Part shown: positions 2,455-61,669 of the stretch, one piece after another
How positions within the stretch are numbered: position 1 is the stretch's first letter
How the letters are laid out: each line of letters opens with the position of its first letter
From: an uncultured Armatimonadetes bacterium
GTDB lineage: Bacteria > Armatimonadota > UBA5829 > DTJY01
Assembly: GCA_963717145.1 (NCBI GenBank)
Contig: OY970325.1
Location: 3,010,448-3,074,447, forward strand
Length of the DNA stretch: 64,000 nt
Direction: 5' to 3'
Notes under the pieces: model-generated
The model's input: the letters and a program-made list of their open reading frames with translations, nothing else
Told to the model about the DNA's origin: nothing
The model's database searches: none
Position numbers and translations under genes: made by a program

Positions 2455-2466
2455 ACCGGCCGCCAA

Positions 2467-13090: not shown

Positions 13091-13096
13091 GGAACC

Positions 13097-17662: not shown

Positions 17663-17684
17663 TGACAGAGCGAGAAGGACAGCC

Positions 17685-18821
17685 ATGACTCCCAAGGAAC
17701 GCATGCTGAAGACCATGAGGCACGGCACGGCCGATCGAGTGCCGGTCGCGCCCGATATGTCGAACATGATCCCCGCGCGCTTGACCGGGAAGCCGTTTTG
17801 GGACATCTACCTCTACCAGGACCCGCCGCTCTGGATGGCCTACATCGACGCGGTGAAGTACTTCGGCTTCGATGGATTCCTCGACTATCAGGTACACATC
17901 GCGTTCCCGGACGAGATCGGGCCGCCGGATCCGCGCTGGCACAACGTCATCGTCGAGCGCACGGACGAGCACATCGTGACCCGGATCTACCACGAAGAGG
18001 ACGGCACGCGCACCTGGAATCCGTTCACGACCGTCTACCAGCGCGCCAACCCGCCGAGCGGCGGAATCCACTTCAGCAAGCTCGGGCTGCCCGAAGTCCC
18101 CGAGCGCTGGGAGCCGATCGAGGGCGTCAAGGAGTGGCCCCAGGGCGAGGCGCTCTTCCAGGCGGCCTACGAGATGATGGGCGACGCGGGCGTCCTCGGC
18201 ATCACGTGCGGAACGAGCGTCGTGGTCGGGAACGAGGACGGCATCTACGAGTACACGGACAACCCGGAGGCCGTCCGCGAGCGGTCGAGACGGATCCTCG
18301 AGGCCTCGAGAAAGCGGTTCGAGAACATCCGCAACATGAAGATCCGCCCCGATTACGTGAGTTGTGGCGGCTCGGGGACGCTCATCTTCCAGACCGTCGA
18401 CATGTTCCGCGACGTCTCCCTGCCGATCGTGCAGGAGGTCACACGCCTGTGCAAGGATGCCGGCATCGTAAGCCACATTCACTCGTGTGGGCCGGAGACG
18501 GCGCTCGTGAAGATCTGCGCCGAGGAGACCGACCTCGACGTGATCGATCCGCTCGAAGTCCCGCCGATGGGCGACTGCATCCTGCCCGACCTCAAAGCGA
18601 AGTACGGCGACCGGCTCGTACTGAAGGGCAACCTGCACACGACCGAGACCATGCTCCACGGCTCATATGACGATGTCATCCGCGCATCGAGGAAGGCGAT
18701 CGAGGACGCGGCCCGCGGTGGATCGTTCATTCTCTCGACCGGCGATCAGTGTGGGCGCGACACGCCGGATCGGAACGTCCAGGCGATGATCGACGCGGTG
18801 AATGAATTTGGGAGATACTAG
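17685..18821 (+). CDS. uroporphyrinogen decarboxylase (URO-D)/MtaA-family protein, paralog 1
   Basis: MTPKERMLKTMRHGTADRVPV... with a URO-D-like TIM-barrel layout. GAAGGA precedes ATG 17685. The track start 17640 lies inside REP D. Confidence 0.8.
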   Translation: MTPKERMLKTMRHGTADRVPVAPDMSNMIPARLTGKPFWDIYLYQDPPLWMAYIDAVKYFGFDGFLDYQVHIAFPDEIGPPDPRWHNVIVERTDEHIVTRIYHEEDGTRTWNPFTTVYQRANPPSGGIHFSKLGLPEVPERWEPIEGVKEWPQGEALFQAAYEMMGDAGVLGITCGTSVVVGNEDGIYEYTDNPEAVRERSRRILEASRKRFENIRNMKIRPDYVSCGGSGTLIFQTVDMFRDVSLPIVQEVTRLCKDAGIVSHIHSCGPETALVKICAEETDLDVIDPLEVPPMGDCILPDLKAKYGDRLVLKGNLHTTETMLHGSYDDVIRASRKAIEDAARGGSFILSTGDQCGRDTPDRNVQAMIDAVNEFGRY

Positions 18822-20409
18822 CAGCCTGTCTGAGAATTCCCCGCTATGTGGGTGAGTTTCCCATCTGCGGGGTCGCGCTGGCTGCTGTTCGATAGTGTTT
18901 TTCGCCGGATTTCCGGCGAGGGTCTGTAAAGACCCCTTGTACCTTGATAATCAGCCTGATCCAGGTCATATATCTACGTATCGAAGATCGATTTCCGGTC
19001 GCCGTATCGGTATAGCTTCAGCATGTTGTGCCCAAGACACGCAAGCGTCCACTCCGACTTCGCTTTCGCAAGGCCTCGGAGTAGGAAGCCTCGGAAGTTC
19101 CGTGCGCTCTTGATCTGGCCGAACACCGGCTCTACCGTCTCCTTCCGCCTCCCGTAGATCTTTCGGCCAAGAGGAGTCAAGAGCTTTGCTCTCTGGCGAT
19201 CTGCGGCGGATTGCTTTGCCGGATCAAGGCAGGAAGGCGCCGTCGGCTCTTTGCCATGACGTTGTCTGTCAGGCGGTATATAAGCGTCGATCCCTTGCTG
19301 CTCGACCATCTCTATGTTGTCGCTGCTGAAGTATCCGGCATCGGCGGATAGTTCTTCCGGTTTCTTTCCGGTGTTCTCCTTGATTGCCTCGATCATGTCA
19401 CTAAGATGCGGTGAGTCCGCTGCCTGGTTCGTGAGATCACACGCCACTACAATCTGATGATCTGCGTCTACCGCAGCTTGTCCGTTGTATGCCTGCACGA
19501 AGGCTTTCTTTGCGTCCTTCATTATCCGGCTTTCCGGGTCTGTGAAGTTCCGCTGTGCCTTCCCTTCCGGCTCTGTCTTTACGGGCCCCGGCTCTCTGCC
19601 GCGAGGCTTCTTCCCGGATGCTTCCTGCTCCGCCTTCTCTTGGGCTCGCATCGCTTCTTCGGCTGATGCTCGCTCTTTGGCCTCGCGCTCCAGCGCTTCT
19701 TTTGCTTCCCTGATCTTGGCGAGCCGCTTCTCTCTGGTTGCGAGTTCCTCCGGGAGTTCGTCTCCTCGGCGGTCAAGACCATATTCCGCGTCTTCCTGGT
19801 CGTCCACAGAAAGACCCTTCGCAAGGAGCGCCTCGATCTCAGCCTGAAGCTCTTTTTCTTTCTCGACCATCCGAGAGTAGCTCATGGCGGAGTGCTTGCT
19901 TGCGTTGGCAAGCAGCTTTGTTCCGTCTATGGCTATGTGTTTCATCGACACAAGCCCGGCGCTTGCGCATAGCCTGAGCACTTGCACAAACAGGTCCGCA
20001 AGGGACTTGAGATGCCTCTTCCTGAACTCGCTTATCGTGCGGAAGTCGGGATGATTTCCTGCCGCAAGCACCCGGAAGGCTACATCTTCATACGTGGCCA
20101 GGGAGAGCTTTCGAGATGAATACACTCCCCGGCACAAACCGTAGAATATGATCTTTGTAAGCATTGCCGGATGGAACGGCGGCGCTCCTCGGGCCTCTTT
20201 CTCGTATGAGGCGTATATCGCGGAAAGGTCGAGACTGTCTACGACATCGCTCACAAAGTATGCGAGATGTCCCTCGGGCAGCCACTCCGACATCAAGGGC
20301 GGCAACAGCAATATCTGGTCAGGTTGATAAGGAAGGTATGGCTTGCTCATACCCGTATTTTACTACATACCTGGCACCTTGCGCCAGAGGTTATTTCATG
20401 GACAGGCTG
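18822..20409 (-). mobile_element. IS1182-family insertion sequence (1,588 bp) with 4-bp CTAG target duplication
   Basis: Terminal inverted repeats CAGCCTGTC (18822-18830) and GACAGGCTG (20401-20409). They are flanked by CTAG at 18818-18821 and 20410-20413. One transposase ORF is present and GC is lower than in the flanks. Confidence 0.85.
18974..20350 (-). CDS. IS1182-family (IS5-like) DDE transposase
   Basis: 458 aa. N-terminus MSKPYLPYQPDQILLLPPLMSEWLPEGHLAYFV...PPFHPAMLTKIIFYGLCRGVYSSRKL is typical of IS1182 transposases. A coiled-coil middle section and a DDE C-terminal half follow. Confidence 0.9.
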   Translation of the reverse strand: MSKPYLPYQPDQILLLPPLMSEWLPEGHLAYFVSDVVDSLDLSAIYASYEKEARGAPPFHPAMLTKIIFYGLCRGVYSSRKLSLATYEDVAFRVLAAGNHPDFRTISEFRKRHLKSLADLFVQVLRLCASAGLVSMKHIAIDGTKLLANASKHSAMSYSRMVEKEKELQAEIEALLAKGLSVDDQEDAEYGLDRRGDELPEELATREKRLAKIREAKEALEREAKERASAEEAMRAQEKAEQEASGKKPRGREPGPVKTEPEGKAQRNFTDPESRIMKDAKKAFVQAYNGQAAVDADHQIVVACDLTNQAADSPHLSDMIEAIKENTGKKPEELSADAGYFSSDNIEMVEQQGIDAYIPPDRQRHGKEPTAPSCLDPAKQSAADRQRAKLLTPLGRKIYGRRKETVEPVFGQIKSARNFRGFLLRGLAKAKSEWTLACLGHNMLKLYRYGDRKSIFDT

Positions 20410-20417
20410 CTAGCTGC

Positions 20418-20529
20418 TTTGGAGTGCGATGGCTCGACATCGCTTTTCTGAGCCGTGGCTCGACACGGCGCCCCCGGGACGGCGTCAAGCCGCTTGGGTC
20501 AAAGCGATGTCGAGCCATCGCACTCCAAA
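20418..20529. repeat. REP family D hairpin (second copy)
   Basis: Same 29-bp arms as 17550-17662, with a different loop. Confidence 0.9.
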
Positions 20530-20539
20530 GGGAGGACCA

Positions 20540-29165: not shown

Positions 29166-30790
29166 GTAGCTGCCCTCGATCTTCCAGGCAAAACGATTCG
29201 AGGTTCCCCGACTCGGTTGATGGTCACCCCATACGGCGATGCCTCGAAGGTGACCGGAGCATCCACCGATCCCTGATCAGCCGTGGACACCACGATGTTG
29301 GCGCTCAAGTCGTAAGTCCCGGTGTCAATGCGGACGATATCCCCCGGTTCGAGGTCATACGTGTTGAGGATCGCCTGCACGCTCGCCTTCGGGTGATCCG
29401 GATCCGTCCCGTGGTTCGAGTCGTCGCCGGGCGCGAAGCACCACTCGTCGTTCACATTCAGACCATCGTTGACGTAGAAACTCAGGCCACTCCTGATTCG
29501 AAAGTCGCCGGGACATGCGGCCAACGCGCTCTCGTCCTGGACGCATATCACCGCTATCCGGTAACGCGCGCCGGGAGTCAACCCGCTGATGTCCCAGTCG
29601 TAGCTCCCAGAGGCGGCATCAACCGCACCGGGGATATCAGTCCATGAGACGCCGCTATCGGCCGAATACGCGAACCGCACCGTGTCTCCCGCCTGCCATC
29701 CGGTTCCCACAGATACCCACTCAATGCGGACCGACATCTGGTCCGGGAAGGTCTCCCCGCCGATTGGGGCGCGCAGCCAGAGACGCCGACCCGGAGGAGT
29801 CGGTGATGACTGCTCCGTGCCGCCATAAGCACCCATGTCGATCCGGCTTCCGTCCGGATCCAGCATGGTGGGATCGCCGGTGTCGATGCAGGGGCTCGCC
29901 GGCGATAGATGGAAATCACCGCTCCCTGCATCCGTAAACTGAGGATCGAGGCTCAGGCTGTTTGCATCGAGGTTCGAGGCCAGACGCCAACTGCTCAACG
30001 TCAGGTAGTCTACACCGTCGAGTTGGCCGACCCTCGCTCCGTTGGTTGCATGGAAGTCATTGAAATCGCTGACGGTGATCGAACACCAACTGAGGACAAA
30101 CCCATAGCTGTTTGGTCCGTCGGCACAGATGATGTTGTTCAGCAGAACCACAGTTTCTCCATACAGGTTCAGCCCGATCCTTCCCTGCCCTGAAATCGTG
30201 CAGTTGCGAATGGTTGCGCTGGAACCATAATCAGCCGTAATCCCGCTCCCACCTTCCTCGGACACAGCCACACAGTCTTCCAGCAGGGTATTCGCCACAT
30301 AGTACCCGGCGTAGATACCCACGTTTGTGTTGCCGGACGCCTCGCACCGGCTCACGGTGCACTGAGAACCATGGACCATGACGCCATAGTCAGCGCCGGT
30401 TACCTTCATCCATCGCTGCTCGACGCCCGGATACTTATCGCTCGCAGCGGTGGTCAGAGTGATGTACCAGCCCCCGAGTTTCCAGGCCATCCCGTCCGGA
30501 TCGGTGCTGCCCCGATCGAATGTCACTCCATAGGGGGACGCTTCGAATGTGACCGGCGCATCAGCCGACCCGCTATCGTCAGCCGCTACGACAGTGTCGC
30601 CGGATAGTGCGTATACACCCGTATCCATGTGAACGATGTCGCCCGGCTCGAGATCATACTCATCGAGAATCGACTGAACGCTCGCCTTGGGGTGATCCGG
30701 ATCCGCTCCCGTGCTCGAATCGTCGCCAGGCGCAGTACACCAGTTGTCGTTGGTGGTGGAGGCGTCGTTGACGTACAGATCCCTGTGACT
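26080..30790. repeat. four tandem ~1.3-kb coding repeats inside the giant gene
   Basis: The landmark G[G/A]TGATCCGG recurs at 30691, 29392, 28091 and 26792, giving periods of 1299, 1301 and 1299 nt. Aligned stretches I compared are roughly 85-95% identical. The outer boundaries are approximate. Confidence 0.8.
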
Positions 30791-30883
30791 GGATGTACCC
30801 GGAGAAGCCGATGATCGCGCGGGAAACTGCATCACGATGCACACGGCCAGAAGAATCAAGAAGGCAAGTCTCGAACGTCTCAT
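29162..30883 (-). CDS. giant repeat-modular beta-helix surface protein, N-terminal 573 aa with signal peptide
   Basis: MRRSRLAFLILLAVCIVMQFPARSSA signal peptide, module 1 and the start of module 2. The last ~17 codons (VGEPRIVLPGRSRAAT*) are out of frame relative to the repeat consensus. Confidence 0.85.
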   Translation of the reverse strand: MRRSRLAFLILLAVCIVMQFPARSSASPGTSSHRDLYVNDASTTNDNWCTAPGDDSSTGADPDHPKASVQSILDEYDLEPGDIVHMDTGVYALSGDTVVAADDSGSADAPVTFEASPYGVTFDRGSTDPDGMAWKLGGWYITLTTAASDKYPGVEQRWMKVTGADYGVMVHGSQCTVSRCEASGNTNVGIYAGYYVANTLLEDCVAVSEEGGSGITADYGSSATIRNCTISGQGRIGLNLYGETVVLLNNIICADGPNSYGFVLSWCSITVSDFNDFHATNGARVGQLDGVDYLTLSSWRLASNLDANSLSLDPQFTDAGSGDFHLSPASPCIDTGDPTMLDPDGSRIDMGAYGGTEQSSPTPPGRRLWLRAPIGGETFPDQMSVRIEWVSVGTGWQAGDTVRFAYSADSGVSWTDIPGAVDAASGSYDWDISGLTPGARYRIAVICVQDESALAACPGDFRIRSGLSFYVNDGLNVNDEWCFAPGDDSNHGTDPDHPKASVQAILNTYDLEPGDIVRIDTGTYDLSANIVVSTADQGSVDAPVTFEASPYGVTINRVGEPRIVLPGRSRAAT

Positions 30884-34263: not shown

Positions 34264-35118
34264 TCACAGGTCGATTTGCGACACGAAGTCGGCGAGGGCA
34301 TCCTCCCACGATCGAAGATCGTTTCGCCCCTGAAGCTCGAGGGCGTAGTTCCGAAGGACCGAGCATTTCGGTCTCCGAGTGGGACTCGGCCACTCTTCTG
34401 CCTTGATCGGCTTCACCTCAACGTTGTTGATACCCGCAAGAGACAGGGTCTTCCTGGCAAACTCATACCAGGAGCACGATCCCTGATTCGTGACGTGATA
34501 AGTCCCATAGAGCGGACTGCCGACGAGATCACGCACGGTCTGCGCCAGGTCTGCGGTGAATGTGGGCGAACCGATCTGATCGGCGACGACGGTGATCTCC
34601 TTGCGGGTCTTCGCCAAGTCGATCATGGTGCGCGGAAAGCACTTCCCGTGGATGCCGTAGAGCCAGGCCGTGCGGACGATCAGATGCTTCGGGCACAACG
34701 TTCTGACGTGCGTCTCGCCCGCAAGCTTCGATGCTCCGTAGTGGCCGAGCGGGTTCACGGCGTCGTACTCCGTGTACGGCTCACCCTTCTCGCCGTCGAA
34801 CACGAAATCGGTGCTGATATAGACGAGCGTCGCATCGACTCGGGCGCAGGCAGCGGCGACATTCCACGTGCCGAAGCCGTTGACCCGGAAGGCGCTGTCG
34901 GGGTCGCGTTCGCAGCCGTCGACATCGGTATAGGCGGCGGCGTGGATCACGGCATCGGGCTTCCCCTCGGCGATGGTCGAGATCACCTGATCCGTGTCCG
35001 TTACGTCGAGGAGACGGAGATCGCCGGCCACGTCGGTCGGCGTCAAGTCTTGGCCGCTGAGCGCCTCTCGAAGGTCCGTGCCGAGCATTCCGGCCGCACC
35101 GGTGATGAGTATTCGCAT
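34264..35118 (-). CDS. rfbD: dTDP-4-dehydrorhamnose reductase
   Basis: 284 aa. MRILITGAAGMLGTDL, the YGASKLAGE catalytic motif, and RmlD-like length. Confidence 0.9.
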   Translation of the reverse strand: MRILITGAAGMLGTDLREALSGQDLTPTDVAGDLRLLDVTDTDQVISTIAEGKPDAVIHAAAYTDVDGCERDPDSAFRVNGFGTWNVAAACARVDATLVYISTDFVFDGEKGEPYTEYDAVNPLGHYGASKLAGETHVRTLCPKHLIVRTAWLYGIHGKCFPRTMIDLAKTRKEITVVADQIGSPTFTADLAQTVRDLVGSPLYGTYHVTNQGSCSWYEFARKTLSLAGINNVEVKPIKAEEWPSPTRRPKCSVLRNYALELQGRNDLRSWEDALADFVSQIDL

Positions 35119-35121
35119 GGC

Positions 35122-35950
35122 CTAGAACCCGAAGACCGGCGTCTGCCCGGCATCGCCGCGAATCGTGAAAGTCTTCTTCGAGCCCGAACTTGTCGCACAC
35201 CTTGCCAAGCTCCGAGTCCGCCTCGTTGAACTTCTTGTCGAGAGTCCCTGCATCGGCTTTGACGCTATTCAGGGCGGCGATGTCGTTCTTGCCGATCGCA
35301 TCCTGGAACTTGCCCATGAAACCGATGAAGGTGCTGAGCGTATCGTAGTACTTCGCGGCCAATGCTCCGCAATCCGCCGGCGCCTTGACCTGGAGGAAGT
35401 ATGCGGACACCTGCTGCCAGTCACGGGTGAAGTCCATCGACTTCTTGGCCAAGTCCTCCGTCGGCTTCTTCGGTTCGTCCTCATCCCAGTCGAAGGGCAG
35501 CGCCTTCATGATCGATTCCGACGCGCCCGCCATGACGGTCTGCAGTTCCTTGGAATAGACTTGCTGGCGGTATTCCTCGACCTTCTTCAGATGCGCGAGG
35601 TAGGCGATGACTTCCGGCGGGACTTCCTTCTTCTCGGGCACCTTGGCATCCGTCTTCGGCGCTTGAAGGACTCCCGGCTGTTGGCCTGCGGGCATGGAGG
35701 GTCCGCTCAGGACACCGGGTTGCTTCGGAGCGGCCGTCGGTCCCTGATCGGCGACCCTCTGGCCCTTGAGATAGAAGCCTAGAGCCGCCAAGAGGCACAG
35801 AGCCACGATCGCAGCGATCAGGCCGGTCTTCTTCCTGCTGCCGGACGCCGGCATACCGGTGACGGATCGCTCGCCTGATGCCGATGCGCCGCAACCGGAG
35901 CAATATCGTGATTCGGGCGGGATTTCGGTTCCGCACTTATTACACTTCAT
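35122..35950 (-). CDS. zinc-ribbon, single-pass membrane protein (apparent frameshift near 35183)
   Basis: MKCNKCGTEIPPESRYCSGCG, a TM helix (LIAAIVALCLLAALGFY), a Pro-rich linker and a helical domain. The track ORF (34781..35950) reads 340 nt across rfbD. Skipping 1 nt at the CCC run 35183-35185 gives ...SKKTFTIRGDAGQTPVFGF*, ending 3 nt before the rfbD ATG, with high GC3. Confidence 0.6.
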
Positions 35951-36173: not shown

Positions 36174-37226
36174 TCAGCTCAATGATCCCAACTCCACCGC
36201 TCGGGCAAGAGTATGGCGCTGCTCGTCGTCCACTTTGGTGAACTGCACGCCGTACTCCCAATTCTGATGTCCGTTGCTCGGCAGCTTGATCGCGCGGGTG
36301 ATCTTGCCGGTTCCAGAGAACTCATCGAGTCCCGCGATGCTGGACGCCTGGATCTTCACCATCGAGCCTGTCTGGAACTGCTCCTCTGTGATGATCTTGA
36401 GCCCGCCGGCGCCGATGTCCTGAGTGAACACTCGGAATGCCGGCCCTATGCTCGGTACGTCGGAGTGCCCATTCTTCTCGACAAGAGCCATATCGACCGC
36501 GATGCGGGCGGGCATTCGCGCATGCTTCCTGCGCTGAACACGATAGATCACGGCTGGCTTGCCGACGACTATCATCGGCAGGTACGAGTCCCGGATCGCC
36601 AGGATGGAAGTCTCGAAGCTGTAGAATGCATCGTCGCCGGCGAATCCGATCGACAGCGCCGACCCCGGCTTGAGGGGCACAGGGCCCGATCCGTTCGATG
36701 GGCACGCAACCGTGAGCGTGAGGTCGTCCTTCTCCTCGATCCGGCTGTGGTACTGGCCGACACCGTCTCCGTCGTGGATCTCCACGAGCAGCGGCTGGCT
36801 ATAGTTGAACAACACGGTCCGTACTGACTCGGACCAGTTGAGTGATTTTTGCCCGATCCCATCATCGAGAGTGGCCTTGACCAGGGCAACGAGGCTGTCC
36901 AGGTCGAACGGCTTGTTGACACATGCCGTGGCGCCCATTGAGAGGGCGCCGGCCATCGTGTCGTGGCTTTCATAGGCCGTCATGATGATGATGGGGATGT
37001 CTTTTCTGTCCTGACGAATACTCTGGAGGGCACTGATGCCATCCATGATCGGCATTCTGACGTCCATAATGACCATGTCGAAGTCGTTCCGACGGGTCTC
37101 TTCCACCGCCTCGGCCCCGTCATGCACGGTACGGACTTCATAGCCGGCTTTCCGCAACTCTGCATCGAGGACGCGACACAGGTTCATTTCGTCATCCGCG
37201 ACGAGTATGCTCCGTTTGTTGATCAT
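36174..37226 (-). CDS. response regulator receiver + PilZ domain protein (c-di-GMP binding predicted)
   Basis: REC: ILVADDE...DMVIMDVRMPIMDG...KPF. C-terminal PilZ motifs RRKHAR and DIGAGGLKI. GGAGG RBS. Confidence 0.85.
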   Translation of the reverse strand: MINKRSILVADDEMNLCRVLDAELRKAGYEVRTVHDGAEAVEETRRNDFDMVIMDVRMPIMDGISALQSIRQDRKDIPIIIMTAYESHDTMAGALSMGATACVNKPFDLDSLVALVKATLDDGIGQKSLNWSESVRTVLFNYSQPLLVEIHDGDGVGQYHSRIEEKDDLTLTVACPSNGSGPVPLKPGSALSIGFAGDDAFYSFETSILAIRDSYLPMIVVGKPAVIYRVQRRKHARMPARIAVDMALVEKNGHSDVPSIGPAFRVFTQDIGAGGLKIITEEQFQTGSMVKIQASSIAGLDEFSGTGKITRAIKLPSNGHQNWEYGVQFTKVDDEQRHTLARAVELGSLS

Positions 37227-37351
37227 TTCCCCATGCCTCCAACAGCAAACAAGGCTGACTGAGCCCGATGACCAGTCAGAAATACTATTATCTGCTCGTG
37301 AGTAGCGCTTCCCCGAGCCATTTTCATGCGATGCTGTCAGGAGTACTTATT

Positions 37352-37367
37352 GCACAAACCGTGCCAT
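37352..37367 (-). promoter_or_regulatory. sigma54 (-24/-12) promoter upstream of the REC-PilZ gene
   Basis: Minus strand reads aaTGGCACGGTTTGTGCAat, against the consensus TGGCACG-N4-TTGCW. The GG and GC dinucleotides are correctly spaced. It lies about 125-140 nt upstream of ATG 37226. Confidence 0.55.
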
Positions 37368-37456
37368 TGAAGGTACATGGGGCAAAGTCGGCGGAATATT
37401 TTTTTGAGGGACTGCGGTTGGTGGCTGTAACGCGATGCGAAACGACCGCAGAAACC

Positions 37457-37528
37457 GTAGGGGCGAAGCATTTGCCCACCGGATATGATGGAGCTTCCTT
37501 TCGATGCGCAAATGCTTCGCCCACCTAC
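37457..37528. repeat. REP family B, degenerate copy
   Basis: GTAGGGGCGAAGCATTTGC-N32-GCAAATGCTTCGCCCACCTAC. It contains the stop codon (37525-37527) of the activator gene. Confidence 0.8.
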
Positions 37529-38727
37529 ACCTGCTCGGTGGCGGCCTGGATCGCAAACGGCAGGAGGTCCGGGGTTATCAGATCGGATGTCGGGTCGGCA
37601 AGCACCACGCACCGCTCGATCGCATTCTCCAACTCGCGGATGTTGCCCGGCCAGTCGTACTTCATCACCAGTTCCAGCGCCTCGGGACTGAGGAACTTGA
37701 CCTCCTTGGCGTTCTCCTTGTTGAACTTCTGGATGAAGTGCTCGGCGAGCGGCGGTATGTCTTCCCTGCGCTCCCGAAGAGACGGCAGGAAGACCTGGAT
37801 GACCTGCAGACGATAGTACAGATCGGCGCGGAAGACGCCATCCGCGACCAGTTGCTCCAAATCGCGGTTAGTGGCCGCGATCAGGCGGACATCGACCTTG
37901 ACGGTCTTGGTGCCGCCGACGCGTTCGAACTCCCGCTCCTGAAGGGCTCGGAGGAGCTTGACCTGGACGGCGGGCGAGACCTCGGGAATCTCATCGAGGA
38001 ACAGAGTCCCCTGATGGGCAAGCTCGAACCGGCCGATCTTCTGGCCGGTCGCGCCTGTGAATGAGCCCTTCTCGTGGCCGAACAGCTCGCTTTCGAGGAG
38101 CGTCTCGGGCAGCGCGGCGCATGAAACAGCGACGAACTGCTTCTGAGCGCGCGGGCTGTTATAATGGATCGCGCGCGCGACGAGTTCCTTGCCCGTGCCG
38201 CTCTCGCCGCGGATGAGCACCGTGGCGTTGCTTCCGGCCACGCGCTCGATGATCTTGTAGACTTCCTGCATCTTCCCGCTCTGGCCGACGATGTTATCGA
38301 ACTTGTAGCGACCCTTCAGTTCCTGCTTGAGTTCGACGTTCTCGCCCATCAGGCGGCTTCGTTCGAGAGCATTCTTGACGACGAGCTTGATCTCATCCAT
38401 ATCGAACGGCTTGGTGATATAGTCGAACGCGCCAAGCTTCATGGCGTCCACGGCGGTCTTGATCGTGCCGTGGGCCGTGATCATGACGACGGACAGCCCG
38501 GGGTTCAATTCTCTCACGGCCTTCAGGACTTCCACACCGTTCATGTCGGGCATGATGAGATCGCATATGACGACGTTCAGGTTGGGATCGGTCGCAACGA
38601 CATCGAGGGCCTTCCGGCCATTGTCGGCCGTTCGGACCTGATAGCCGTCCTTGGTGAACACGGCCTCGAGTACGCGCCTGATATTCGGCTCATCGTCAAC
38701 TATGAGAAGAGACTTCTGCTCGTCCAT
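37525..38727 (-). CDS. sigma54-dependent response regulator (REC + AAA+), lacking the C-terminal HTH DNA-binding domain
   Basis: 400 aa. REC: LLIVDDEP...[11 protein letters not shown]...KPF. AAA+: Walker [15 protein letters not shown]-loop variant GSFTGA, Walker B LFLDEI, and [10 protein letters not shown]. The protein ends about 25 aa after that, with no Fis-type HTH. Confidence 0.9.
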
Positions 38728-38757
38728 ATTCTGCCTTTCTGGAATCGTCGGTAACCC

Positions 38758-38816
38758 GTAGGGGAGGCCTTCAACGGCCTCCCGAACACGGGCGGGCGTA
38801 GAAGCACCGCCCCTAC
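38758..38816. repeat. REP family A copy
   Basis: GTAGGGGAGGCCTTCAACGGCCTCCCGAACACGGGCGGGCGTAGAAGCACCGCCCCTAC, between the kinase and the activator. Confidence 0.9.
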
Positions 38817-38820
38817 GGCA

Positions 38821-41800
38821 CTAGTCGGTAACCCTGCGGCCCCGCTTCAGTAACTCGTCCTCACCCATCTGAACGGCGCTCTCCGCCTGCTCCAGAGCGG
38901 CGCGAGCCTTGTCACCACAGAGCGGGAGGTACACTTGGAAGGTCGTGCCCTGCCCCACCTGACTCTTGACTCGGATTCTCCCGCCGTGATTCTCCACGAT
39001 CTTCTGCACGATCGCAAGGCCGAGGCCGGTACCCTTCGTCTTGGTGGTGAAGAACGGCACGAAAATCTGCTTCAACTGCGTCTCTGTGATCCCCAGCCCT
39101 GTGTCAGTGACCGAGATGTTCACTCCATCCGGTTCAGAGGACGTCACAACCGACAGCTTACCACCTTCGGGCATAGCCTGCAAGGCATTCAAAATGATGT
39201 TGCGGAGCACCTGCTCGAGCTGCTTATCATCGGCGATGACTCTGGGGACATCATACGCCAGATTCGGCTCGACCTGCACGGCATGCTTGCTGATGTCCAT
39301 CTGCATGAACTGCAGCAGCCTGAACAGCACGTCATTGACATCGGTTTCCTTCAGGTTGAACCTGGTCGGCCGCGCGAAATCGAGGAACTCCGTCGTGATC
39401 TTGTTGAGGACGTTGACCTCTTCGATAATGATGTCGAGGAACTCGCACATGAGCACGTGGTCCTCGTACTCCTTGCGGATATACTGGGCGGCCCCTTTGA
39501 TGGAGCTTAGCGGATTGCGCAGTTCGTGAGCGATGCTTGCCGCAAGCTGACCGATCGCCGCAAGCTCCGAGATCCTGCGCATCTCGTTCTCCATCTTGAT
39601 CTCGCGAGTGATGTCCTCGAAGATGATGACCAGGCCCAGCATCTCCCCGACGTGGTCACGGAGTTGGGCAATATTCATATTGATATAGGCGACATCACCG
39701 TCGAGCCCGTGGTATTCCAGCTTGTAGCCCAGGTACTTCTGGCCGGTATCCATCACCCGTTGTATCGCGCCCAGGGTGCGAGCCCTATCCGCGGGCGAGA
39801 TATCGAGCTTCTCGATGACCTCGGGGAACCGCAGCCCGGCTACATCGAGCGCCTGAATCGACGTGATGTCCTCAGCCGCCCTGTTCCAGGTCAGCACGCG
39901 GCCTTCACGATCCAGGGTCAACACGCCGGCCGCGATGCTCCTGAGAATGTCGTCCGTGTAGCTGGCGAGCGCCGTGAGGGCCTCCAGTTCTTTGTAGAGG
40001 GCAGCCGCCTGAGACGCGATCACCGAGAGGATCTTGACGTTCTCCTCGGTGTACGCGTTCGGGGCGTAACTGTGGACGCTGAGCACTCCGACAACCTCGT
40101 CCTGGACGATCAGAGGGATGGCCATGAGCGACCTGACTTCCTTGCTTCGAGCGCCGGTCGCCGAACGGAATCGCGGATCCTTGCGAATATCTCGGGACAC
40201 GAGCGCCTTGCGCTCACGTATCGCCCAACTGCTCAACGTGTCCACGTCAAGAGGCAGGTCGCTGCCCGGAAGTGCGCTTTGCTCGACGCCCCGGCATGCC
40301 TGCGCAACCATTTTGCCCCGCTCGTAGTCGACTGTGTAGATCGAGCTTTCATCGTACCAGACGATGCCGCGCACGATATCGAGGATCGAATCGAAGGCCT
40401 CCTTGGGGCTGCCCGCGGTCGATATACGCTCCGAAAGCTGATAGAGAGCGGACAACTCGAGGACCTTCTGCTCCATCTGCTCTTCGTAACTGCTGGCGTT
40501 CTTGATGATAGTCGCCGCCTGAGCCGCGATGATCGAGAGCAGCCTGATCCGACGCTTCTCCGGAAGCCTTCCGTTGCTTCCGAGCATCAGAACACCGATC
40601 ACCCCGTCCTCGGCAACCAGCGGCACGAGGTTGATGCGCGAGAACGACTTGCCGAGCATGTCCGCGAGTGGGCGCAGACACTCCGGCCAGCGGCCTTTGC
40701 CCTGCGTCAAGAGACTCTGCGGCTCCCTGTGCCGGTGTATCCACGCGATCGCTTCGTCGCCGATCATGTCGGTGACCGACTTGCTCAGCTTCGTCGGCAC
40801 CGAGGCTGAGGCCCATACGCGCACCGGTGATTGTGGCCGGTTGTCCGTCAGTAGAAGCATCGCCGAAACGTCGCCGGTCAACTGTGCCGCCAGCCGAACG
40901 AGTGTATTGGCGGCGTTCTCGAGGCTGTAGGCGCTGCTCAGCTCGTTGCTCATCTCGTACAGGGTCGAAAGCTCCTGCACCCGCTCCTTGAGGCTCTGGT
41001 ACAGGTGCGCGTTCGATATCGCGAGCGCGGCCTGACTGGCAAAGACGCTGAAGAGCTTGACGTCATCCTGGGTAAACATGGCCGCCGGCGAGATGCGCCG
41101 GATGCTGAGTACGCCGTTGACGTGCCCCTCCTCGTCTCGCAGAGGTACGCAGATGGATGACACAATGTCCGGCCTCGGTGTGATCGACACGCCCGCAAAC
41201 CGCGGGTCGTCCTGAAGGTTCGTCAGCAGCATCGGCTCGCCGGTCTGCGCCACCCGGCCCGCGATGCCGTCGCCGTAGGCAACCCTGGTCTCTTCGACGA
41301 CCTCTTCCGAGAGGCCGTGGCTCGCCTTGATGATCAACTCGTCCTTGTGGGGATCCTTGAGCATGAGGGAGCAGGCCTGCGCATCCATAACCGCGGCGGC
41401 TTTCTCAGTGATGAGCTTGAGCAGATCATCGGTCTCGACGCTCTCTATGGCCTGGCTGATCTCGTAGACCGCCGAGACTTCCTCGATGCGTTTCTGAGCC
41501 GATCGGCCGGATGCGGGCGCGTTGAACGTCCGGGTCTCGCGGGACAGGTAGAGGGAGAGATGACGCGCCACCACAGAGAGGAAATCCTTGTCATCCTTTG
41601 CCAGGCGCTCGTCCGGACAGATGAGAGTGCCGAGCACGACCGAGTTCGCCTCGATGGGCACGGCCCAGAAAGATGATCCGTTCGACGAGACGCTGGCGGC
41701 GGATACCCGGCTCTTGGCGAACTCGCGCACGAGCAGGTCGCGGTCGACGGGCAGCTTCCGTGAAGACGCAGACCCAGTTCCCGCCGACAGGTACTCGGAG

Positions 41801-41958
41801 CCGTCATATCCGGGCAGCCATAGACCGACGGACTCGACCGGAAGTACATCCTTCGCACTGGCGAGGATCTTCCGAAGCGTCTGTCGGGGCTCTCTGGCTG
41901 AACTGGTAAGTGTTATTATGTCGCAGATTGCGCTGTAACGACCCGATGGATCGAGCAT
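38821..41958 (-). CDS. sensor histidine kinase with multiple GAF-like domains, a PAS domain, HisKA and HATPase_c
   Basis: About 1,045 aa from ATG 41958 (GAGGAG RBS; the track start is 42075). H-box ASIAHELRNPLSSIKG. N/G boxes LRNIILNALQA, DTGLGI and GTGLGLAIV. Long GAF-like repeats lie N-terminally. No obvious TM segment. Confidence 0.85.
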   Translation of the reverse strand: MLDPSGRYSAICDIITLTSSAREPRQTLRKILASAKDVLPVESVGLWLPGYDGSEYLSAGTGSASSRKLPVDRDLLVREFAKSRVSAASVSSNGSSFWAVPIEANSVVLGTLICPDERLAKDDKDFLSVVARHLSLYLSRETRTFNAPASGRSAQKRIEEVSAVYEISQAIESVETDDLLKLITEKAAAVMDAQACSLMLKDPHKDELIIKASHGLSEEVVEETRVAYGDGIAGRVAQTGEPMLLTNLQDDPRFAGVSITPRPDIVSSICVPLRDEEGHVNGVLSIRRISPAAMFTQDDVKLFSVFASQAALAISNAHLYQSLKERVQELSTLYEMSNELSSAYSLENAANTLVRLAAQLTGDVSAMLLLTDNRPQSPVRVWASASVPTKLSKSVTDMIGDEAIAWIHRHREPQSLLTQGKGRWPECLRPLADMLGKSFSRINLVPLVAEDGVIGVLMLGSNGRLPEKRRIRLLSIIAAQAATIIKNASSYEEQMEQKVLELSALYQLSERISTAGSPKEAFDSILDIVRGIVWYDESSIYTVDYERGKMVAQACRGVEQSALPGSDLPLDVDTLSSWAIRERKALVSRDIRKDPRFRSATGARSKEVRSLMAIPLIVQDEVVGVLSVHSYAPNAYTEENVKILSVIASQAAALYKELEALTALASYTDDILRSIAAGVLTLDREGRVLTWNRAAEDITSIQALDVAGLRFPEVIEKLDISPADRARTLGAIQRVMDTGQKYLGYKLEYHGLDGDVAYINMNIAQLRDHVGEMLGLVIIFEDITREIKMENEMRRISELAAIGQLAASIAHELRNPLSSIKGAAQYIRKEYEDHVLMCEFLDIIIEEVNVLNKITTEFLDFARPTRFNLKETDVNDVLFRLLQFMQMDISKHAVQVEPNLAYDVPRVIADDKQLEQVLRNIILNALQAMPEGGKLSVVTSSEPDGVNISVTDTGLGITETQLKQIFVPFFTTKTKGTGLGLAIVQKIVENHGGRIRVKSQVGQGTTFQVYLPLCGDKARAALEQAESAVQMGEDELLKRGRRVTD

Positions 41959-41990
41959 AAGTCTCCTCAAGTGCAGAGCTTCATGAGTGC

Positions 41991-42019
41991 AGTATAGCAC
42001 AGCGTAAATGCCGTAGCAA
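41991..42019 (-). promoter_or_regulatory. sigma70-type promoter for the kinase operon
   Basis: Minus strand reads TTGCTA-cggcatttacgctgtgc-TATACT (17-bp spacer), about 33 nt upstream of ATG 41958. Confidence 0.45.
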
Positions 42020-42123
42020 GCACCGGAGGACTTGCGCCATGCCGACGCTACGGCACAAAAACGGCCACCTCCCACTTGCGAAGATGGCCTTTACAGGTAT
42101 GTCACCACGGTCAATCGTCCCGC

Positions 42124-42252: not shown

Positions 42253-42492
42253 TCATGCGGCAAGGCGGAGTTCGATCGGGAAGTCGATGATCTCGCATTC
42301 CACCAGGTCATCCGCACCGAGACAAGCTATCGGTGTGTCCGACCAGAAGCGGTCCCAGTACTCCTCCTCGGCCCGGCAGTTGACAGCGCCGGCCACGAAC
42401 AGGAGTCCGAGTCCTGCTGCCATGAGCACCCCCAATACCTTGGCGCAAAGTATCGCGATCGACAATTCCGTTGCCACATTGCCTCCGATCAT
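42253..42492 (-). CDS. possible small membrane protein (about 79 aa)
   Basis: MIGGNVATELSIAILCAKVLGVLMAAGLGLLFVAGAVNCRAEEEYWDRFWSD... My hand count gives GC3 of about 70%, consistent with coding. The start is uncertain (track: 42561). Confidence 0.35.
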   Translation of the reverse strand: MIGGNVATELSIAILCAKVLGVLMAAGLGLLFVAGAVNCRAEEEYWDRFWSDTPIACLGADDLVECEIIDFPIELRLAA

Positions 42493-44231: not shown

Positions 44232-44328
44232 ACGTATCCTCGCCCTTCTTGCGTCACGTCGGGGCTCTCATGCTACCAGACCGCCTCTCTCCTGTCAACG
44301 CAGATCGCGGTGGGGTGCATTTCCGCAG

Positions 44329-44461
44329 AGTGGGTCAGCCTCTCGTTATGCCACCAGAGTGGCTACTCGAGGAGAACGGTTGTGGTCTGCCGTGAGTCCA
44401 TGGCCCACAACCGTTCTCCTCGAGTAGCCACTCTGGTGGCATAACGAGAGGCTGACCCACT
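44329..44461. repeat. very long perfect hairpin (about 57-bp stem, about 18-nt loop)
   Basis: AGTGGGTCAGCCTCTCGTTATGCCACCAGAGTGGCTACTCGAGGAGAACGGTTGTGG ... CCACAACCGTTCTCCTCGAGTAGCCACTCTGGTGGCATAACGAGAGGCTGACCCACT. Confidence 0.9.
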
Positions 44462-44483
44462 GAACTCGAATGCGCCCATCGCG

Positions 44484-44548
44484 GTGTTCGGGCGGGTACA
44501 AACTCCGGATGCGGTGGCCGTTCCCGGAGTTTGTACCCGCCCGAACAC
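44484..44548. repeat. hairpin (25-bp stem)
   Basis: GTGTTCGGGCGGGTACAAACTCCGG-N15-CCGGAGTTTGTACCCGCCCGAACAC. Confidence 0.9.
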
Positions 44549-44690
44549 CCAGTTGGGAGTTTCTTTCTGGCGGCAACAACTGCGAGACAGGCACAGTACC
44601 CTGCTCAGAATGGCAATCTGCGGCTCCCCGTTCACGGTTTCGAAGACGTTTCGTCACCAGAAAGAAGAATTTTCGCGGAAGTGACGCGAG

Positions 44691-44706
44691 TGGCACGGTT
44701 TTTGCA
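44691..44706 (+). promoter_or_regulatory. sigma54 promoter P1 (exact consensus)
   Basis: TGGCACGGTTTTTGCA equals TGGCACG-N4-TTGCA at every defined position. It is 309 nt upstream of the PEP-CTERM gene ATG. Confidence 0.65.
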
Positions 44707-44821: not shown

Positions 44822-44837
44822 TGGCATGGTTCTTGCA
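44822..44837 (+). promoter_or_regulatory. sigma54 promoter P2
   Basis: TGGCATGGTTCTTGCA has one deviation (C6 to T) from the consensus and correct -24 GG / -12 GC spacing. It is 178 nt upstream of ATG 45015. Confidence 0.6.
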
Positions 44838-45014
44838 AGTATGGACAGTGGGAACGCGGACGAGGCAAGCCGCCGCTGCCGAAGGGAAACCGGAAAGCAG
44901 CAGGACCGTCCAACCCATGATTCGTTTTCAATCTGCGATGCAAGTGCCTGGTACCCAAACGGCGGCCGGGTGAGCGCGCCAGATCGCTAAACTATCCGAA
45001 AGGAGCATCAGACA

Positions 45015-45794
45015 ATGCGAAAGGTTCTAACATTTGCACTAGCCGCTCTCATGGTAGTGGCGATCGCGGGCGCTTCGAGCGCCGCAGCCCCGAATCCTCT
45101 TAACTGGAGGTTCAACTTCATCACCGACAACGGCGCAGGCTTATTCGCGGCCAGCAACTTCCAGCTCGGCGTCTCCCCGACCTCGGTGGATGGACCCGAT
45201 ACGATCTTGCCTCTCCAGGACCTGAAGGCCAGTTTCGGAACCGACCTTCCCGGGACCGGTCACTGGACAGTCAGCCTTGTTCCCGGTGACACAACGAACC
45301 TGTATCTGCACGACCTGCAGTCGAACGCTTCGCCGTACACCTATACGGAACCCAGGAACACCAAGCTGTGGAATCTGCGGGTCGCAGGGAATTCAAGTGC
45401 TACGGGCGCTCTGCACTTGTCGTTCACCACCACGGGCTTGACGCAGCCGTCGGTCGATCAGGACGGAAAGCCGGTCTTCTACGAGATGCGGATGATCAAC
45501 AACCGAGGTATGGCAGGCGCGCCGACCAACGGCACCATCTGGAACATCCCGATCCCGGCCTCCGGCACGGCATCAAACGTGAAGTTCTGGGACATGGCGG
45601 TCAACGCCGATACCAACGGTACCGTATGGGGCAACATGCCGCTCATCAACGTAAGCGTTCCGAACTACGCCAGCTTCCGTGACGAGGGTTACGAGATGCA
45701 GTTCCGAATGGTCCCTGAGCCGAGCAGCATGCTCGCAATGGGCAGCGGTCTCATCGGACTGATCGGAGTCGCGATCCGCAGACGGAGAGCGTAA
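45015..45794 (+). CDS. PEP-CTERM sorting-domain secreted protein
   Basis: Signal peptide MRKVLTFALAALMVVAIAGASSAAA. C-terminal VPEPSSMLAMGSGLIGLIGVAIRRRRA gives PEP + TM helix + Arg cluster. AAAGGAG RBS. Confidence 0.85.
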   Translation: MRKVLTFALAALMVVAIAGASSAAAPNPLNWRFNFITDNGAGLFAASNFQLGVSPTSVDGPDTILPLQDLKASFGTDLPGTGHWTVSLVPGDTTNLYLHDLQSNASPYTYTEPRNTKLWNLRVAGNSSATGALHLSFTTTGLTQPSVDQDGKPVFYEMRMINNRGMAGAPTNGTIWNIPIPASGTASNVKFWDMAVNADTNGTVWGNMPLINVSVPNYASFRDEGYEMQFRMVPEPSSMLAMGSGLIGLIGVAIRRRRA

Positions 45795-45906: not shown

Positions 45907-45942
45907 AACCGCCCGGTTGACGAACCGGGCGGTTTTCTTTTT
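45907..45942 (+). terminator. Rho-independent terminator
   Basis: AACCGCCCGGTT-GACG-AACCGGGCGGTT followed by TTCTTTTT, 113 nt downstream of the PEP-CTERM gene stop. Confidence 0.8.
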
Positions 45943-45944
45943 GC

Positions 45945-46122
45945 GGAATGGTTGATGGTTGATGGTTGATGGTTCATGGGGGGATGGGGAAGGGAATGGT
46001 TGATGGTTCATGGTTAATGGGGGAATGGGGAATGGTTGATGGTCGATGGTTAATGGTAGATGGGGTATCCGGCCCCCATCAACCATGAACCATCAACCAT
46101 CAACCATTCCCCATTCCCCCCC
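45945..46122. repeat. repeat family E: array of GGTTGATGG-type 9-mers folding into a ~47-bp imperfect hairpin
   Basis: Left arm 46019-46065 pairs with right arm 46074-46120 (3 mismatches). Extra direct copies lie at 45945-46018. The last 7 codons of the epimerase gene (GGMGNG*) lie inside it. Confidence 0.85.
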
Positions 46123-48455: not shown

Positions 48456-48524
48456 GTCACCTTCCAGGCGATCCGGACTAGCTTCCTATTACACCCGATG
48501 AGCGGGTAGTCCTGCTGGTCAGGT

Positions 48525-48629
48525 GATCGTAATGTAGGGGCGTGCCTTGTGCCGCCCGCAACCGGCGTGCCTTGTGCCGCCAGACACGCCGGTTGCGGGC
48601 GGCACAAGGCACGCCCCTACATTACGATC
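48525..48629. repeat. GTAGGGGCG-headed long hairpin (about 45-bp arms)
   Basis: GATCGTAATGTAGGGGCGTGCCTTGTGCCGCCCGCAACCGGCGTG ... CACGCCGGTTGCGGGCGGCACAAGGCACGCCCCTACATTACGATC. Confidence 0.9.
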
Positions 48630-49617
48630 ACGCCAGCGGTTGGCTCGCGATGGTATCGAGGTCGAGGCCGTCGATATCGCCGCGCAGGACGTGATGGTAG
48701 CCCGCGCAGGCGATCATGGCCGCGTTGTCGGTGCAGAGTCGCGGGGGAGGATAGGAGAGTTCGATCCCGCGACTGTCGCACACTTCCTGCATCGAACGCT
48801 TGAGGCCCGAGTTCGCCGCGACGCCCCCGCCGAGCGCAACTCGCTCGATGCCGGTCTGCTCGACGGCCCGCATCGTGGTGCTCACCAGCATCTCCACAAC
48901 TGCGGCCTGGAAGCTCGCGGCGAGGTCCTCGATCGGGACCTCGCCTCCGTGAGCCTGGAAGTGCCTGACGACGGCGGTCTTGATCCCACTGAAGCTGAAG
49001 TCGAGCCCATCGACCTTGGAGCGGGGGAAGCGCACTGCCTCCGGGTTCCCATCCTTCGCAAGTGAATCGATGATAGGGCCGCCGGGATATCCGAGTCCCA
49101 TCGCGCGCGCGGACTTGTCGAACGCCTCACCCGACGCGTCGTCCCTCGTGCGACCGAGAATCCTGTACTCACCGTGTCCGCTCACCAGCACGAGGTCCGT
49201 GTGGCCGCCGGAGACGATCAGGCAGACGAACGGGAACTGCAGGCCGGGATTCGCCAGGAAGTTGGCATAGATGTGGCCTTCGAGGTGATGGACTCCGACG
49301 AGCGGGAGGTTCAACGCGGCCGAAATCGCCTTCGCCGCCGAGACACCGACGAGGAGCGCTCCGAGCAGGCCGGGACGATTGGTGACGGCGATCGCATCGA
49401 CGTCCCTGAGCGTGAGATCGGCCTTATCGAGCGCCTCCCGGATCACGATGTTGATCAGCTCGACGTGCTTGCGAGAGGCGATTTCCGGCACGATCCCGCC
49501 GAAACGGGCATGGAGATCGATCTGAGATGCTATGACATCGGAGAGTATCTTGCAGCCGTCTTCAACGATTGAGGAGGATGTGTCGTCGCAGCTTGTCTCG
49601 ATGCCGAGAACTCTCAT
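48628..49617 (-). CDS. tsaD: tRNA N6-adenosine threonylcarbamoyltransferase TsaD
   Basis: MRVLGIETSCDDTS..., HLEGHIYANF and SGGHT motifs. ATG 49617 overlaps the rimI stop (ATGA). The track start is 49692. Confidence 0.9.
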   Translation of the reverse strand: MRVLGIETSCDDTSSSIVEDGCKILSDVIASQIDLHARFGGIVPEIASRKHVELINIVIREALDKADLTLRDVDAIAVTNRPGLLGALLVGVSAAKAISAALNLPLVGVHHLEGHIYANFLANPGLQFPFVCLIVSGGHTDLVLVSGHGEYRILGRTRDDASGEAFDKSARAMGLGYPGGPIIDSLAKDGNPEAVRFPRSKVDGLDFSFSGIKTAVVRHFQAHGGEVPIEDLAASFQAAVVEMLVSTTMRAVEQTGIERVALGGGVAANSGLKRSMQEVCDSRGIELSYPPPRLCTDNAAMIACAGYHHVLRGDIDGLDLDTIASQPLA

Positions 49618-52531: not shown

Positions 52532-52578
52532 GGGGGATGGGGGATGGTTGATGGCTGATGGTTGATGGTTAATGGGGA
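52532..52578. repeat. repeat family E half-element
   Basis: GGGGGATGGGGGATGGTTGATGGCTGATGGTTGATGGTTAATGGGGA. Confidence 0.75.
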
Positions 52579-52636
52579 GACGGGAGGCCTGCCTTGGCGG
52601 GAACCACCGCTGGCGGAATGCGAGCGGCGGACGATG

Positions 52637-61667: not shown

Positions 61668-61669
61668 GC

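Follow-up and report, generated by a model that had tools for sequence, protein, structure and literature searches.

How can a sigma-54 activator that lacks a DNA-binding domain (DBD) select and open its promoters, and what would such a protein control in a free-living bacterium? The question is raised by a gene cassette in a stretch of 64,000 nucleotides (nt) from the genome of an uncultured Armatimonadetes bacterium (contig OY970325.1; the whole stretch is called the window below). There, a sensor histidine kinase with several GAF domains and a PAS domain is followed by an activator composed of a receiver (REC) and an AAA+ domain, by a -24/-12 promoter, and by the gene for a second response regulator, in which a receiver is joined to a PilZ module. 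A first-pass annotation had described this arrangement, and its central structural claims are supported and strengthened by the comparisons reported here. As a whole, the findings are best explained, with a probability of roughly 0.65, by a two-component system of the CtcC/FlgR type that activates the sigma-54 holoenzyme from solution.

By Pfam, the activator consists of Response_reg, Sigma54_activat (PF00158, 246.5 bits), and AAA_lid_14. The 400-residue length, the domains, and the motifs that had been read from it are all borne out (D56 of the receiver; Walker A, GESGTGKE, residues 174-181; the sigma-54 contact loop, GSFTGA, 221-226; Walker B, LFLDE, 242-246), and with its AAA+ core, both Walker motifs, and an intact GAFTGA-type loop, the protein is by definition a bacterial enhancer-binding protein (bEBP). 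In an alignment of 11 orthologues, receiver residues D11, D12, D56, T84, and K106 are invariant, as are Walker A, Walker B, and F223-T224-G225-A226 of the contact loop; with these elements kept, the activator looks functional. The closest solved structure is the REC plus AAA+ portion of Aquifex aeolicus NtrC1 (PDB 1NY5, 4L4U; E about 1e-111), in which the linker helix also aligns, suggesting the same release from repression upon phosphorylation. However, full-length NtrC1 continues past AAA+ (447 residues in 4L4U) into a C-terminal tail, which is a DBD, while the window protein ends 32 residues after RELEN. The activator belongs to no named NCBIfam equivalog; all scores fall below the respective cut-offs (AtoC, 518.4 vs 714; NtrC, 457.7 vs 558.6; ZraR, 429.3 vs 760; PrsR, 401.2 vs 502.6; FlgR, 339.7 vs 750).

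No HTH_8 or other DBD is detected by Pfam in the activator. The earlier claim that the protein stops too soon for a Fis-type helix-turn-helix (HTH) stands, although the tail, which had been put at about 25 residues, is the longer one just given. More than 100 clusters of orthologues, at 66-94% identity, agree with this: the complete members are 395-425 residues long (nearly all 395-409), none has HTH_8 (PF02954) among its Pfam domains, and the sources, where given, are almost all named Armatimonadota or Armatimonadetes. Within the 11 aligned orthologues, the stop falls at the same position, about 10-15 residues past a nearly invariant LITPDLLP. As a control, each of the 80 nearest homologues from other phyla (among the matches listed in a scan of a genome collection, all of them generic NtrC-type proteins) was extended in frame to look for an HTH tail. 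An HTH_8-like tail ('...GNKSxAAxxLGIxRxTLxxKL...') is present in 75 of these 80 listed matches; of the other five, three are cut off by the end of the contig and two, from Bacteroidia, stop early. When the 75 tails from the listed matches were compared with the DNA downstream of the activator, none had a counterpart, whether in the window or in eight other Armatimonadota loci. In this test, which had been set in advance, no HTH_8 came to light that might have been hidden by an indel or by insertion of a repetitive extragenic palindromic (REP) element. Given the orthologue lengths, the shared stop, the tails in other phyla, and the lack of a downstream remnant, the absence of the DBD can be regarded as natural. 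The domain was evidently lost in an ancestor of the clade, with the short form kept ever since, and the activator can be placed, from its sequence, in structural class Ic, the DBD-less bEBPs.

The -24/-12 element TGGCACGGTTTGTGCA, which has GG at -24 and GC at -12 in canonical spacing, lies 158 nt past the activator stop and 124 nt before the ATG of the REC-PilZ gene; its presence at this distance had been correctly noted, although with coordinates one base away from those found here (37366-37351). When the 64-kb window is scanned with the lineage-typical pattern TGGCAY-N6-TGCA, three matches are obtained vs 0.14 expected, a number reached in none of 100 shuffles, and each of the three lies between genes and points towards one; the remaining two are at 44691 and 44822. 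For comparison, a set of nine lineages was used, made up of the window and eight orthologous neighbourhoods (L001, L003, L005, and L087-L091; 66-91% activator identity). Seven of the nine have the element in the spacer between the activator and receiver genes, and these are all the lineages having the receiver gene; besides the window, it is conserved at the orthologous place in L001/L002, L003/L004, L087, L088, L089, and L091, and it is absent from the spacers of L005 and L090, which are without the receiver gene. The sequences are CAATGGCACGGTTTGTGCA in the window, CAATGGCACGGTTTATGCA in L001, CAATGGCATACTTTGTGCA in L087, CAATGGCATGGATTGTGCA in L088, TTATGGCATGAATTATGCA in L089, TTTGGCACGCCGTATGCA in L091, and TTTGGCACGATTTATGCG in L003, where the element persists even though the PilZ part has been lost from the downstream gene. 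In an alignment of the spacers of five REC-PilZ loci (mean column identity, 52%), little is invariant beyond the -24/-12 bases and a tract of six to eight A residues, which precedes TGGCA by 28-32 nt in the window, L001, L087, L088, and L089. The tract is possibly an UP-like or DNA-bending element; a conserved inverted repeat, which would be an enhancer candidate, was not seen upstream of the promoter in the five aligned spacers. By the test of conservation, the sigma-54 promoter before the REC-PilZ gene appears to be real. The REC-PilZ leader is not conserved in sequence, and a riboswitch or known RNA within it was rejected, since Rfam gives no credible match to the 120-nt leader and only spurious miRNA matches on palindromes. 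A -24/-12-like match at 12825 in L089 was discarded as a false positive within the coding start of argC.

The remainder of the cassette has been kept to different degrees. A multi-GAF/PAS kinase of 879-1,190 residues lies directly upstream of the activator in all eight of the other loci, so that the two genes are adjacent in 9/9 lineages. The downstream gene encodes REC-PilZNR-PilZ or REC-PilZ in L001, L087, L088, L089, and L091, as in the window, and a 131-residue receiver in L003, clearly the same receiver minus its PilZ part. In L005, the downstream gene is for an unrelated 226-residue membrane protein and, in L090, for a prepilin-like protein; a sigma-54 site is found in both within a few kb of the activator, before a gene for an M48 peptidase (L005, 16540-16555; L090, 13333-13348; both on the minus strand). 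Taken together, these comparisons suggest that a two-component sigma-54 module is conserved over a large Armatimonadota clade.

The output gene is, as had been proposed, a REC-PilZ gene, in which Pfam finds Response_reg, PilZNR (48.1 bits; cut-off 23), and PilZ (47 bits; cut-off 22.5). The family comprises about 50 clusters, all from Armatimonadota where named, and diverges faster than the activator. Among 20 of its members, D11, D55, T83, and K105 of the receiver are invariant and D12 is nearly so. Of the two motifs of c-di-GMP-binding PilZ domains, RxxxR is present as RRKHAR, with R232, R233, and R237 invariant in the same 20 members, but the D.S..G-type motif is not, the Ser being replaced by Gly in DIGAGG. 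In the window's clade, this second motif reads D/N-I/V-G-x-G-G, so that (D/N)xSxxG is not encountered while D/N and GG are kept; the canonical Ser occurs only in more divergent members (P0163, P0166, and P0168-P0170). An AlphaFold (AF2) model built from the family alignment has a mean pLDDT of 80.7 and a disordered linker at residues 123-137. In a fold search (Foldseek), residues 140-350 are best matched by Bacillus subtilis MotI, Vibrio cholerae VCA0042, Pseudomonas putida PP4397, and Escherichia coli YcgR, all with E <=8e-10, and residues 1-120 by ordinary receivers; when solved structures are searched by sequence, the PilZ part gives only a marginal match to VCA0042 (E 1.3). The receiver is of the NtrC/AtoC type. 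It is 34% identical to that of the activator, and the two resemble each other in the alpha-1 helix, where specificity for a kinase is usually determined, as might be expected if the adjacent kinase served both.

The kinase begins at ATG 41958 behind a GGAG, giving a protein of 1,045 residues. When the whole protein and four sub-segments were run against Pfam, GAF was found four times (residues 24-136, 176-314, 345-487, and 517-653), followed by PAS (about 671-786), HisKA (H-box HELRNP, 811-816, with H811), and HATPase_c, in full accord with the earlier description of a kinase of about this length that carries several GAF domains and each of the others. It had also been called cytoplasmic, and a hydropathy scan detects no transmembrane segment; the top 19-residue value, 1.65, falls within a GAF strand. 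The kinase can therefore be considered soluble. The best NCBIfam match is an AtoS-like C-terminal part, under the cut-off. A consensus scan recovers a predicted sigma-70-type promoter with an extended -10 TG at the very position given for it, 42019-41991, which is 33 nt before the kinase ATG and just after a terminator-like hairpin, a location in keeping with transcription of kinase and activator as a unit of their own.

Domain architectures, the absence of the DBD and its conservation in the lineage, gene order, and promoter conservation are what is observed; from them, a mechanism can be proposed in which both the co-transcription of kinase and activator and every step from the kinase signal onward are inferred, the activator steps by way of what has been learned from NtrC1/DctD-type proteins and from CtcC and FlgR (PMC3162934, PMC7482065). 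In this model, the sigma-70-type promoter would transcribe the multi-GAF/PAS kinase together with the NtrC1/AtoC-type activator. An intracellular cue, perceived through the GAF and PAS domains, would cause the kinase to phosphorylate D56 of the activator, and phosphorylation would then release the AAA+ domain and allow a ring to form. The untethered ring would contact sigma-54 via GSFTGA and, as has been described for CtcC and FlgR, would open closed complexes from solution, including that at the -24/-12 promoter behind the activator's own stop codon. This promoter would express the second response regulator, an NtrC-type receiver joined to a YcgR/MotI-like two-barrel PilZ module. REC-PilZ would probably take phosphate from the same kinase, bind cyclic di-GMP (c-di-GMP), and act by protein contact like MotI and YcgR, and, as a phosphate sink, it may exert feedback on the pathway. 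The same activator would be a natural candidate for a pair of tandem promoters before a PEP-CTERM gene, considered below.

It should be noted that several points weigh against this model. The only tie between the activator and the promoter is their conserved adjacency, and other activators, complete with DBDs, may be present elsewhere in the genome. In L005 and L090, where the downstream gene differs, the nearest sigma-54 site is the one that precedes the M48 peptidase gene. The sigma-70-like promoter is a consensus match and by itself weak evidence, given that the scan finds 3 sites vs 1.7 expected. The loss of the PilZ Ser makes c-di-GMP binding uncertain, and among the 20 largest other open reading frames (ORFs) of the window there is neither rpoN nor a second activator. 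It could be postulated that the REC-PilZ promoter is served by a different, conventional activator bound at an upstream site and that the DBD-less protein has other targets or modulates. Adjacency would then reflect shared function rather than direct control, and the binding site might fall within the 3'-terminal part of the activator gene. The window, being 64 kb of a 5.4-Mb genome, leaves room for such an activator, and in L003 and L091, the -24 element is only 36-44 nt past the stop, so that an upstream site would hide in coding sequence, where conservation is uninformative. Nevertheless, this explanation is unlikely, as the A-tract is the only upstream feature in common and no inverted repeat is conserved in the five aligned spacers, the activator and promoter have stayed adjacent over 67-91% activator identity while the flanking genes change, and the lineages without the promoter are exactly those without the receiver gene. 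Another suggestion, that the activator is brought to DNA by a partner, either a separate HTH protein or REC-PilZ itself, draws on the PilZ-fold protein MrkH, a DNA-binding protein reported to be a c-di-GMP-dependent transcriptional activator (PMC3161979), whose structures are found at ranks 11-17 of the fold matches to the PilZ module. However, MrkH is outmatched there by MotI, VCA0042, PP4397, and YcgR, which are not known as DNA binders, no HTH_8-like sequence is found near the cassette in any locus examined, and the activator is unchanged in L003, without the PilZ part, and in L005 and L090, without the gene; recruitment by a partner is thus very improbable. Finally, the REP-like hairpin that starts right after the activator stop might suggest a truncated pseudogene or an assembly artefact, such as a REP insertion at the stop, yet the same length and stop recur in the more than 100 orthologue clusters, which come from independent assemblies and mostly lack that REP. 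In addition, the catalytic motifs are intact, no HTH remnant lies downstream, and homologues from other phyla have the tail that is missing here; such a reading is refuted and retains practically no credence.

A further alternative concerns the output. Here, the PilZ module would no longer bind c-di-GMP, the protein would be a phosphorylation-controlled adaptor or a phosphate sink, and the cassette would be unlinked to this second messenger. Such a view is favoured by the change from Ser to Gly in the window's clade and by the receiver-only gene of L003, which makes the receiver the indispensable part, and PilZ proteins that do not bind, such as PlpA, are known (PMC8316039). Against it, RRxxxR, D/N, and GG are invariant or nearly so, even in members at 29-43% identity, and both PilZ domains of Myxococcus xanthus PixB are without that Ser, yet PixB bound c-di-GMP in vitro (PMC8316039). 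Since PixB binds without the Ser, binding by REC-PilZ remains probable, although unproven, and its loss, while a possibility to be taken seriously, is doubtful.

How far might an activator working from solution reach? The other two sites of the window stand in tandem before a PEP-CTERM gene. Orthologues of this gene from three further lineages (L092/L093, L094, and L095/L096; 37-51% identity) are likewise preceded by two TGGCAY-N6-TGCA sites, 125-131 nt apart and about 300 and about 170 nt before the ATG, and the pair is kept even when the flanking genes are different. Viewed with 3-kb flanks, the L092-L096 loci contain no activator gene within those flanks. L091 has a further sigma-54 site in front of a different PEP-CTERM gene, at a distance of 7.4 kb downstream from the activator gene. 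The tandem promoters are probably further sigma-54 targets, and it is plausible that the DBD-less activator drives them from 7 kb away: the paired promoters are conserved with no activator nearby, and therefore some sigma-54 promoters are activated in trans. The first base of the -12 element is G or A in 7/7 receiver-gene promoters and T (TTGCA) in 8/9 PEP-CTERM promoters; if the activator is not tethered, variation of this kind in the core promoter may be all that sets one promoter above another. A more far-reaching version can also be imagined, although it is rather improbable. In this version, the DBD-less activator would be the master, perhaps the only, sigma-54 activator of the clade and would control a surface regulon (PEP-CTERM, M48 peptidase) from solution; feedback by REC-PilZ, competing for kinase phosphate and gated by c-di-GMP, would generate a self-limiting pulse, and ranking would reside solely in the -12 element (G/A-TGCA vs TTGCA).

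The selection on sigma-54 promoters in this lineage provides indirect evidence for a working rpoN. Intact activators and sigma-54 are known to co-occur almost perfectly (PMC3162934), and this co-occurrence, with the invariance of the contact loop, lends indirect support to an rpoN in the genome. The open-access full-text literature yielded nothing on sigma-54 regulation in Armatimonadota. The portion of the Fimbriimonas genome paper that itemises sigma factors has only rpoD, rpoE, and fliA, and its two supplementary text files make no mention of rpoN or NtrC.

Class Ic, whose members are without a DNA-binding and/or signal domain, accounts for about 4% of surveyed activators; CtcC and FlgR lack the DBD, and FleT lacks both domains (PMC3162934). 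These three are the only DBD-less activators found in the open-access full-text literature. The present system resembles Chlamydia CtcB/CtcC in having an AtoS/AtoC-like kinase, a DBD-less REC plus AAA+ activator, and phylum-wide conservation, and CtcC is thought to act on the sigma-54 holoenzyme without an enhancer (PMC7482065). The likeness is one of architecture, and here the kinase has four GAF domains and a PAS, a sigma-54 promoter driving a receiver-PilZ gene lies directly downstream, and the host is a free-living member of Armatimonadota. Helicobacter pylori FlgS/FlgR likewise pairs a soluble kinase with a DBD-less REC plus AAA+ activator of class Ic (PMC3162934), but FlgR controls flagellar genes, none of which are linked to the present cassette, and the FlgR model is missed by a wide margin (339.7 vs 750). 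PrsK/PrsR (TIGR02916, TIGR02915) also combine a kinase and a sigma-54 activator with a PEP-CTERM gene having sigma-54 promoters in the organism; however, both window proteins are below the family cut-offs (the activator as given above, the kinase at 110.6 vs 300 bits), and the match to the PrsR model of 445 positions ends at 387, leaving its C-terminal part uncovered.

The output protein shares PilZNR plus PilZ and RRxxxR with YcgR, MotI (DgrA), and VCA0042 (PlzD), which are among its best fold matches. It differs from them in its fused, phosphorylatable N-terminal receiver, in the Gly in place of the DxSxxG Ser, and in belonging to a family apparently confined to Armatimonadota. M. xanthus PixA likewise has a receiver and a c-di-GMP-binding PilZ domain in one response regulator (PMC8316039) and is the only studied receiver-PilZ protein found in the literature, but its order is PilZ then REC, it has no PilZN-type domain, its gene is an orphan, and no sigma-54 control of it is known. 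What is new here, then, is the phylum, the high conservation, the soluble four-GAF kinase, the sigma-54 promoter behind the activator gene, and the receiver-YcgR/MotI-like product. As every part is of a known kind, the gain is incremental rather than conceptual. Even so, work on natural DBD-less activators has been limited to a few bacteria, most of them host-associated (Chlamydia, Helicobacter, and Rhodobacter for FleT), and here the same solution is met with in a core module, highly conserved at 66-94% identity, in a phylum that is free-living and has received little study. The local target promoter together with the tandem PEP-CTERM promoters could provide a clean natural system for promoter choice without tethering of the activator, and a receiver fused to a YcgR/MotI-like module represents an uncharacterised type of receptor that could merge phosphorylation and c-di-GMP signals.

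Table. Positions of the cassette elements and related features in the window.
Feature	Position	Strand	Basis or remark
REC + PilZNR + PilZ response regulator, 350 aa	36174..37226	-	Pfam; D55, RRKHAR 232-237, DIGAGG 270-275
Predicted sigma-54 (-24/-12) promoter TGGCACGGTTTGTGCA	37351..37366	-	Scan and conservation
A7 tract	37399..37405	-	32 nt upstream of the -24 element
REP-like hairpin	37457..37524	-	Right after the activator stop; families D15, D17; -37.9 kcal/mol, z = -5.4
Sigma-54 activator (bEBP), 400 aa, REC + AAA+ + lid	37525..38727	-	Pfam and motifs
REP-like palindrome	38745..38822		Fills the 93-nt kinase-activator spacer; folds at -42.9 kcal/mol
Sensor histidine kinase	38821..41958	-	ORF 38821..42075, start at ATG 41958
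Sigma-70-like promoter TTGCTA-17-TATACT, extended -10 TG	41991..42019	-	Consensus scan
Terminator-like hairpin with T-run	42063..42089	-	Between the upstream gene and the kinase promoter, which it sets apart
Small membrane protein gene, about 79 aa, motif NCRAEEEYWDRFW	42253..42492	-	ORF and translation
Tandem candidate sigma-54 promoters	44691-44706, 44822-44837	+	Before PEP-CTERM gene 45015..45794

Two REP-like elements are associated with the cassette. The one that had been noted between kinase and activator is confirmed as a repeated palindromic family and corresponds to families D11, D12, I10, and I23, with copies at 818-1068 and 12949-13094. It is missing from the orthologous loci, where the gap between the two genes ranges from a 4-nt overlap to 134 nt. 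The hairpin after the activator stop is possibly a partial terminator or a stabiliser of the transcript. Families D9, D11, D12, D15, D17, and I10-I25 have copies at at least eight other sites of the window, and because the palindromes recur across it and fold into stable hairpins, the REP label is a fair one.

Upstream of the kinase is a gene for a small single-pass membrane protein with the motif NCRAE-E-WDRFW (19-residue hydropathy 2.43), for which no match was found in Pfam. The gene is directly upstream of the kinase in the window, L001 (6776-6994), and L003 (6365-6595), and with only 3/9 lineages having it, the idea that its product accompanies the kinase universally was rejected. It is an accessory, partly conserved part of the kinase unit and may serve as a membrane partner of the soluble kinase.

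On the other side of the cassette, downstream of REC-PilZ, is a gene for a zinc-ribbon/membrane protein (35119-35950, minus strand), as is also the case in L001 and L091. In comparison with the 278-residue L001 orthologue, an apparent +1 frameshift is located near 35164, about 15 codons before the expected stop, resulting in a 389-residue ORF that runs 338 nt into rmlD (34264..35118); the frameshift may be genuine or due to a sequencing error. Farther away, at 1060-4155 on the minus strand, are PilC-like (T2SSF) and PilB-like (T2SSE with MshEN) genes, and the organism therefore has a type IV pilus or type II secretion machine, which is a conceivable target of the PilZ protein.

The PEP-CTERM gene has a strongly conserved leader before its ribosome-binding site, at about 44930-45010 in the window and about 2920-3000 in L092 and L095. 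It consists of CTGCGATGCAAGTGCC...CAGATCGCTAAACTATCCGAAAGGAG with GCGAT/ATCGC pairing, whereas the proteins are only about 50% identical; no Rfam match was found for it, and it may be a regulatory RNA element. Between an mtaB-like gene and the PEP-CTERM promoters are two palindromes, 44313-44477 (73-nt arms, 90% complementarity) and 44475-44557 (34-nt arms), on which Rfam gives spurious miRNA matches. A -24/-12-like sequence, AGGCACGCCGGTTGC (48558-48572), was set aside as probably due to chance; it lies inside a palindrome at 48523-48631, whose 50-nt arms are 98% complementary and which is situated between tsaD and a gene for a TrkA-type channel.

Elsewhere in the window, a beta-helix/DUF5123 gene pair (25209-30883, minus strand) contains a unit of about 1,300 nt that occurs four times in tandem, at 62-90% identity. 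Arrays of short repeats of the GGTTGATGGTT type, partly inverted, occupy intergenic positions 45942-46120, 52532-52584, and 61653-61699. An insertion sequence at 17548-20531 encodes a DDE transposase (18974..20350) and is bounded by inverted repeats of 57-62 nt (17548-17662 and 20418-20531).

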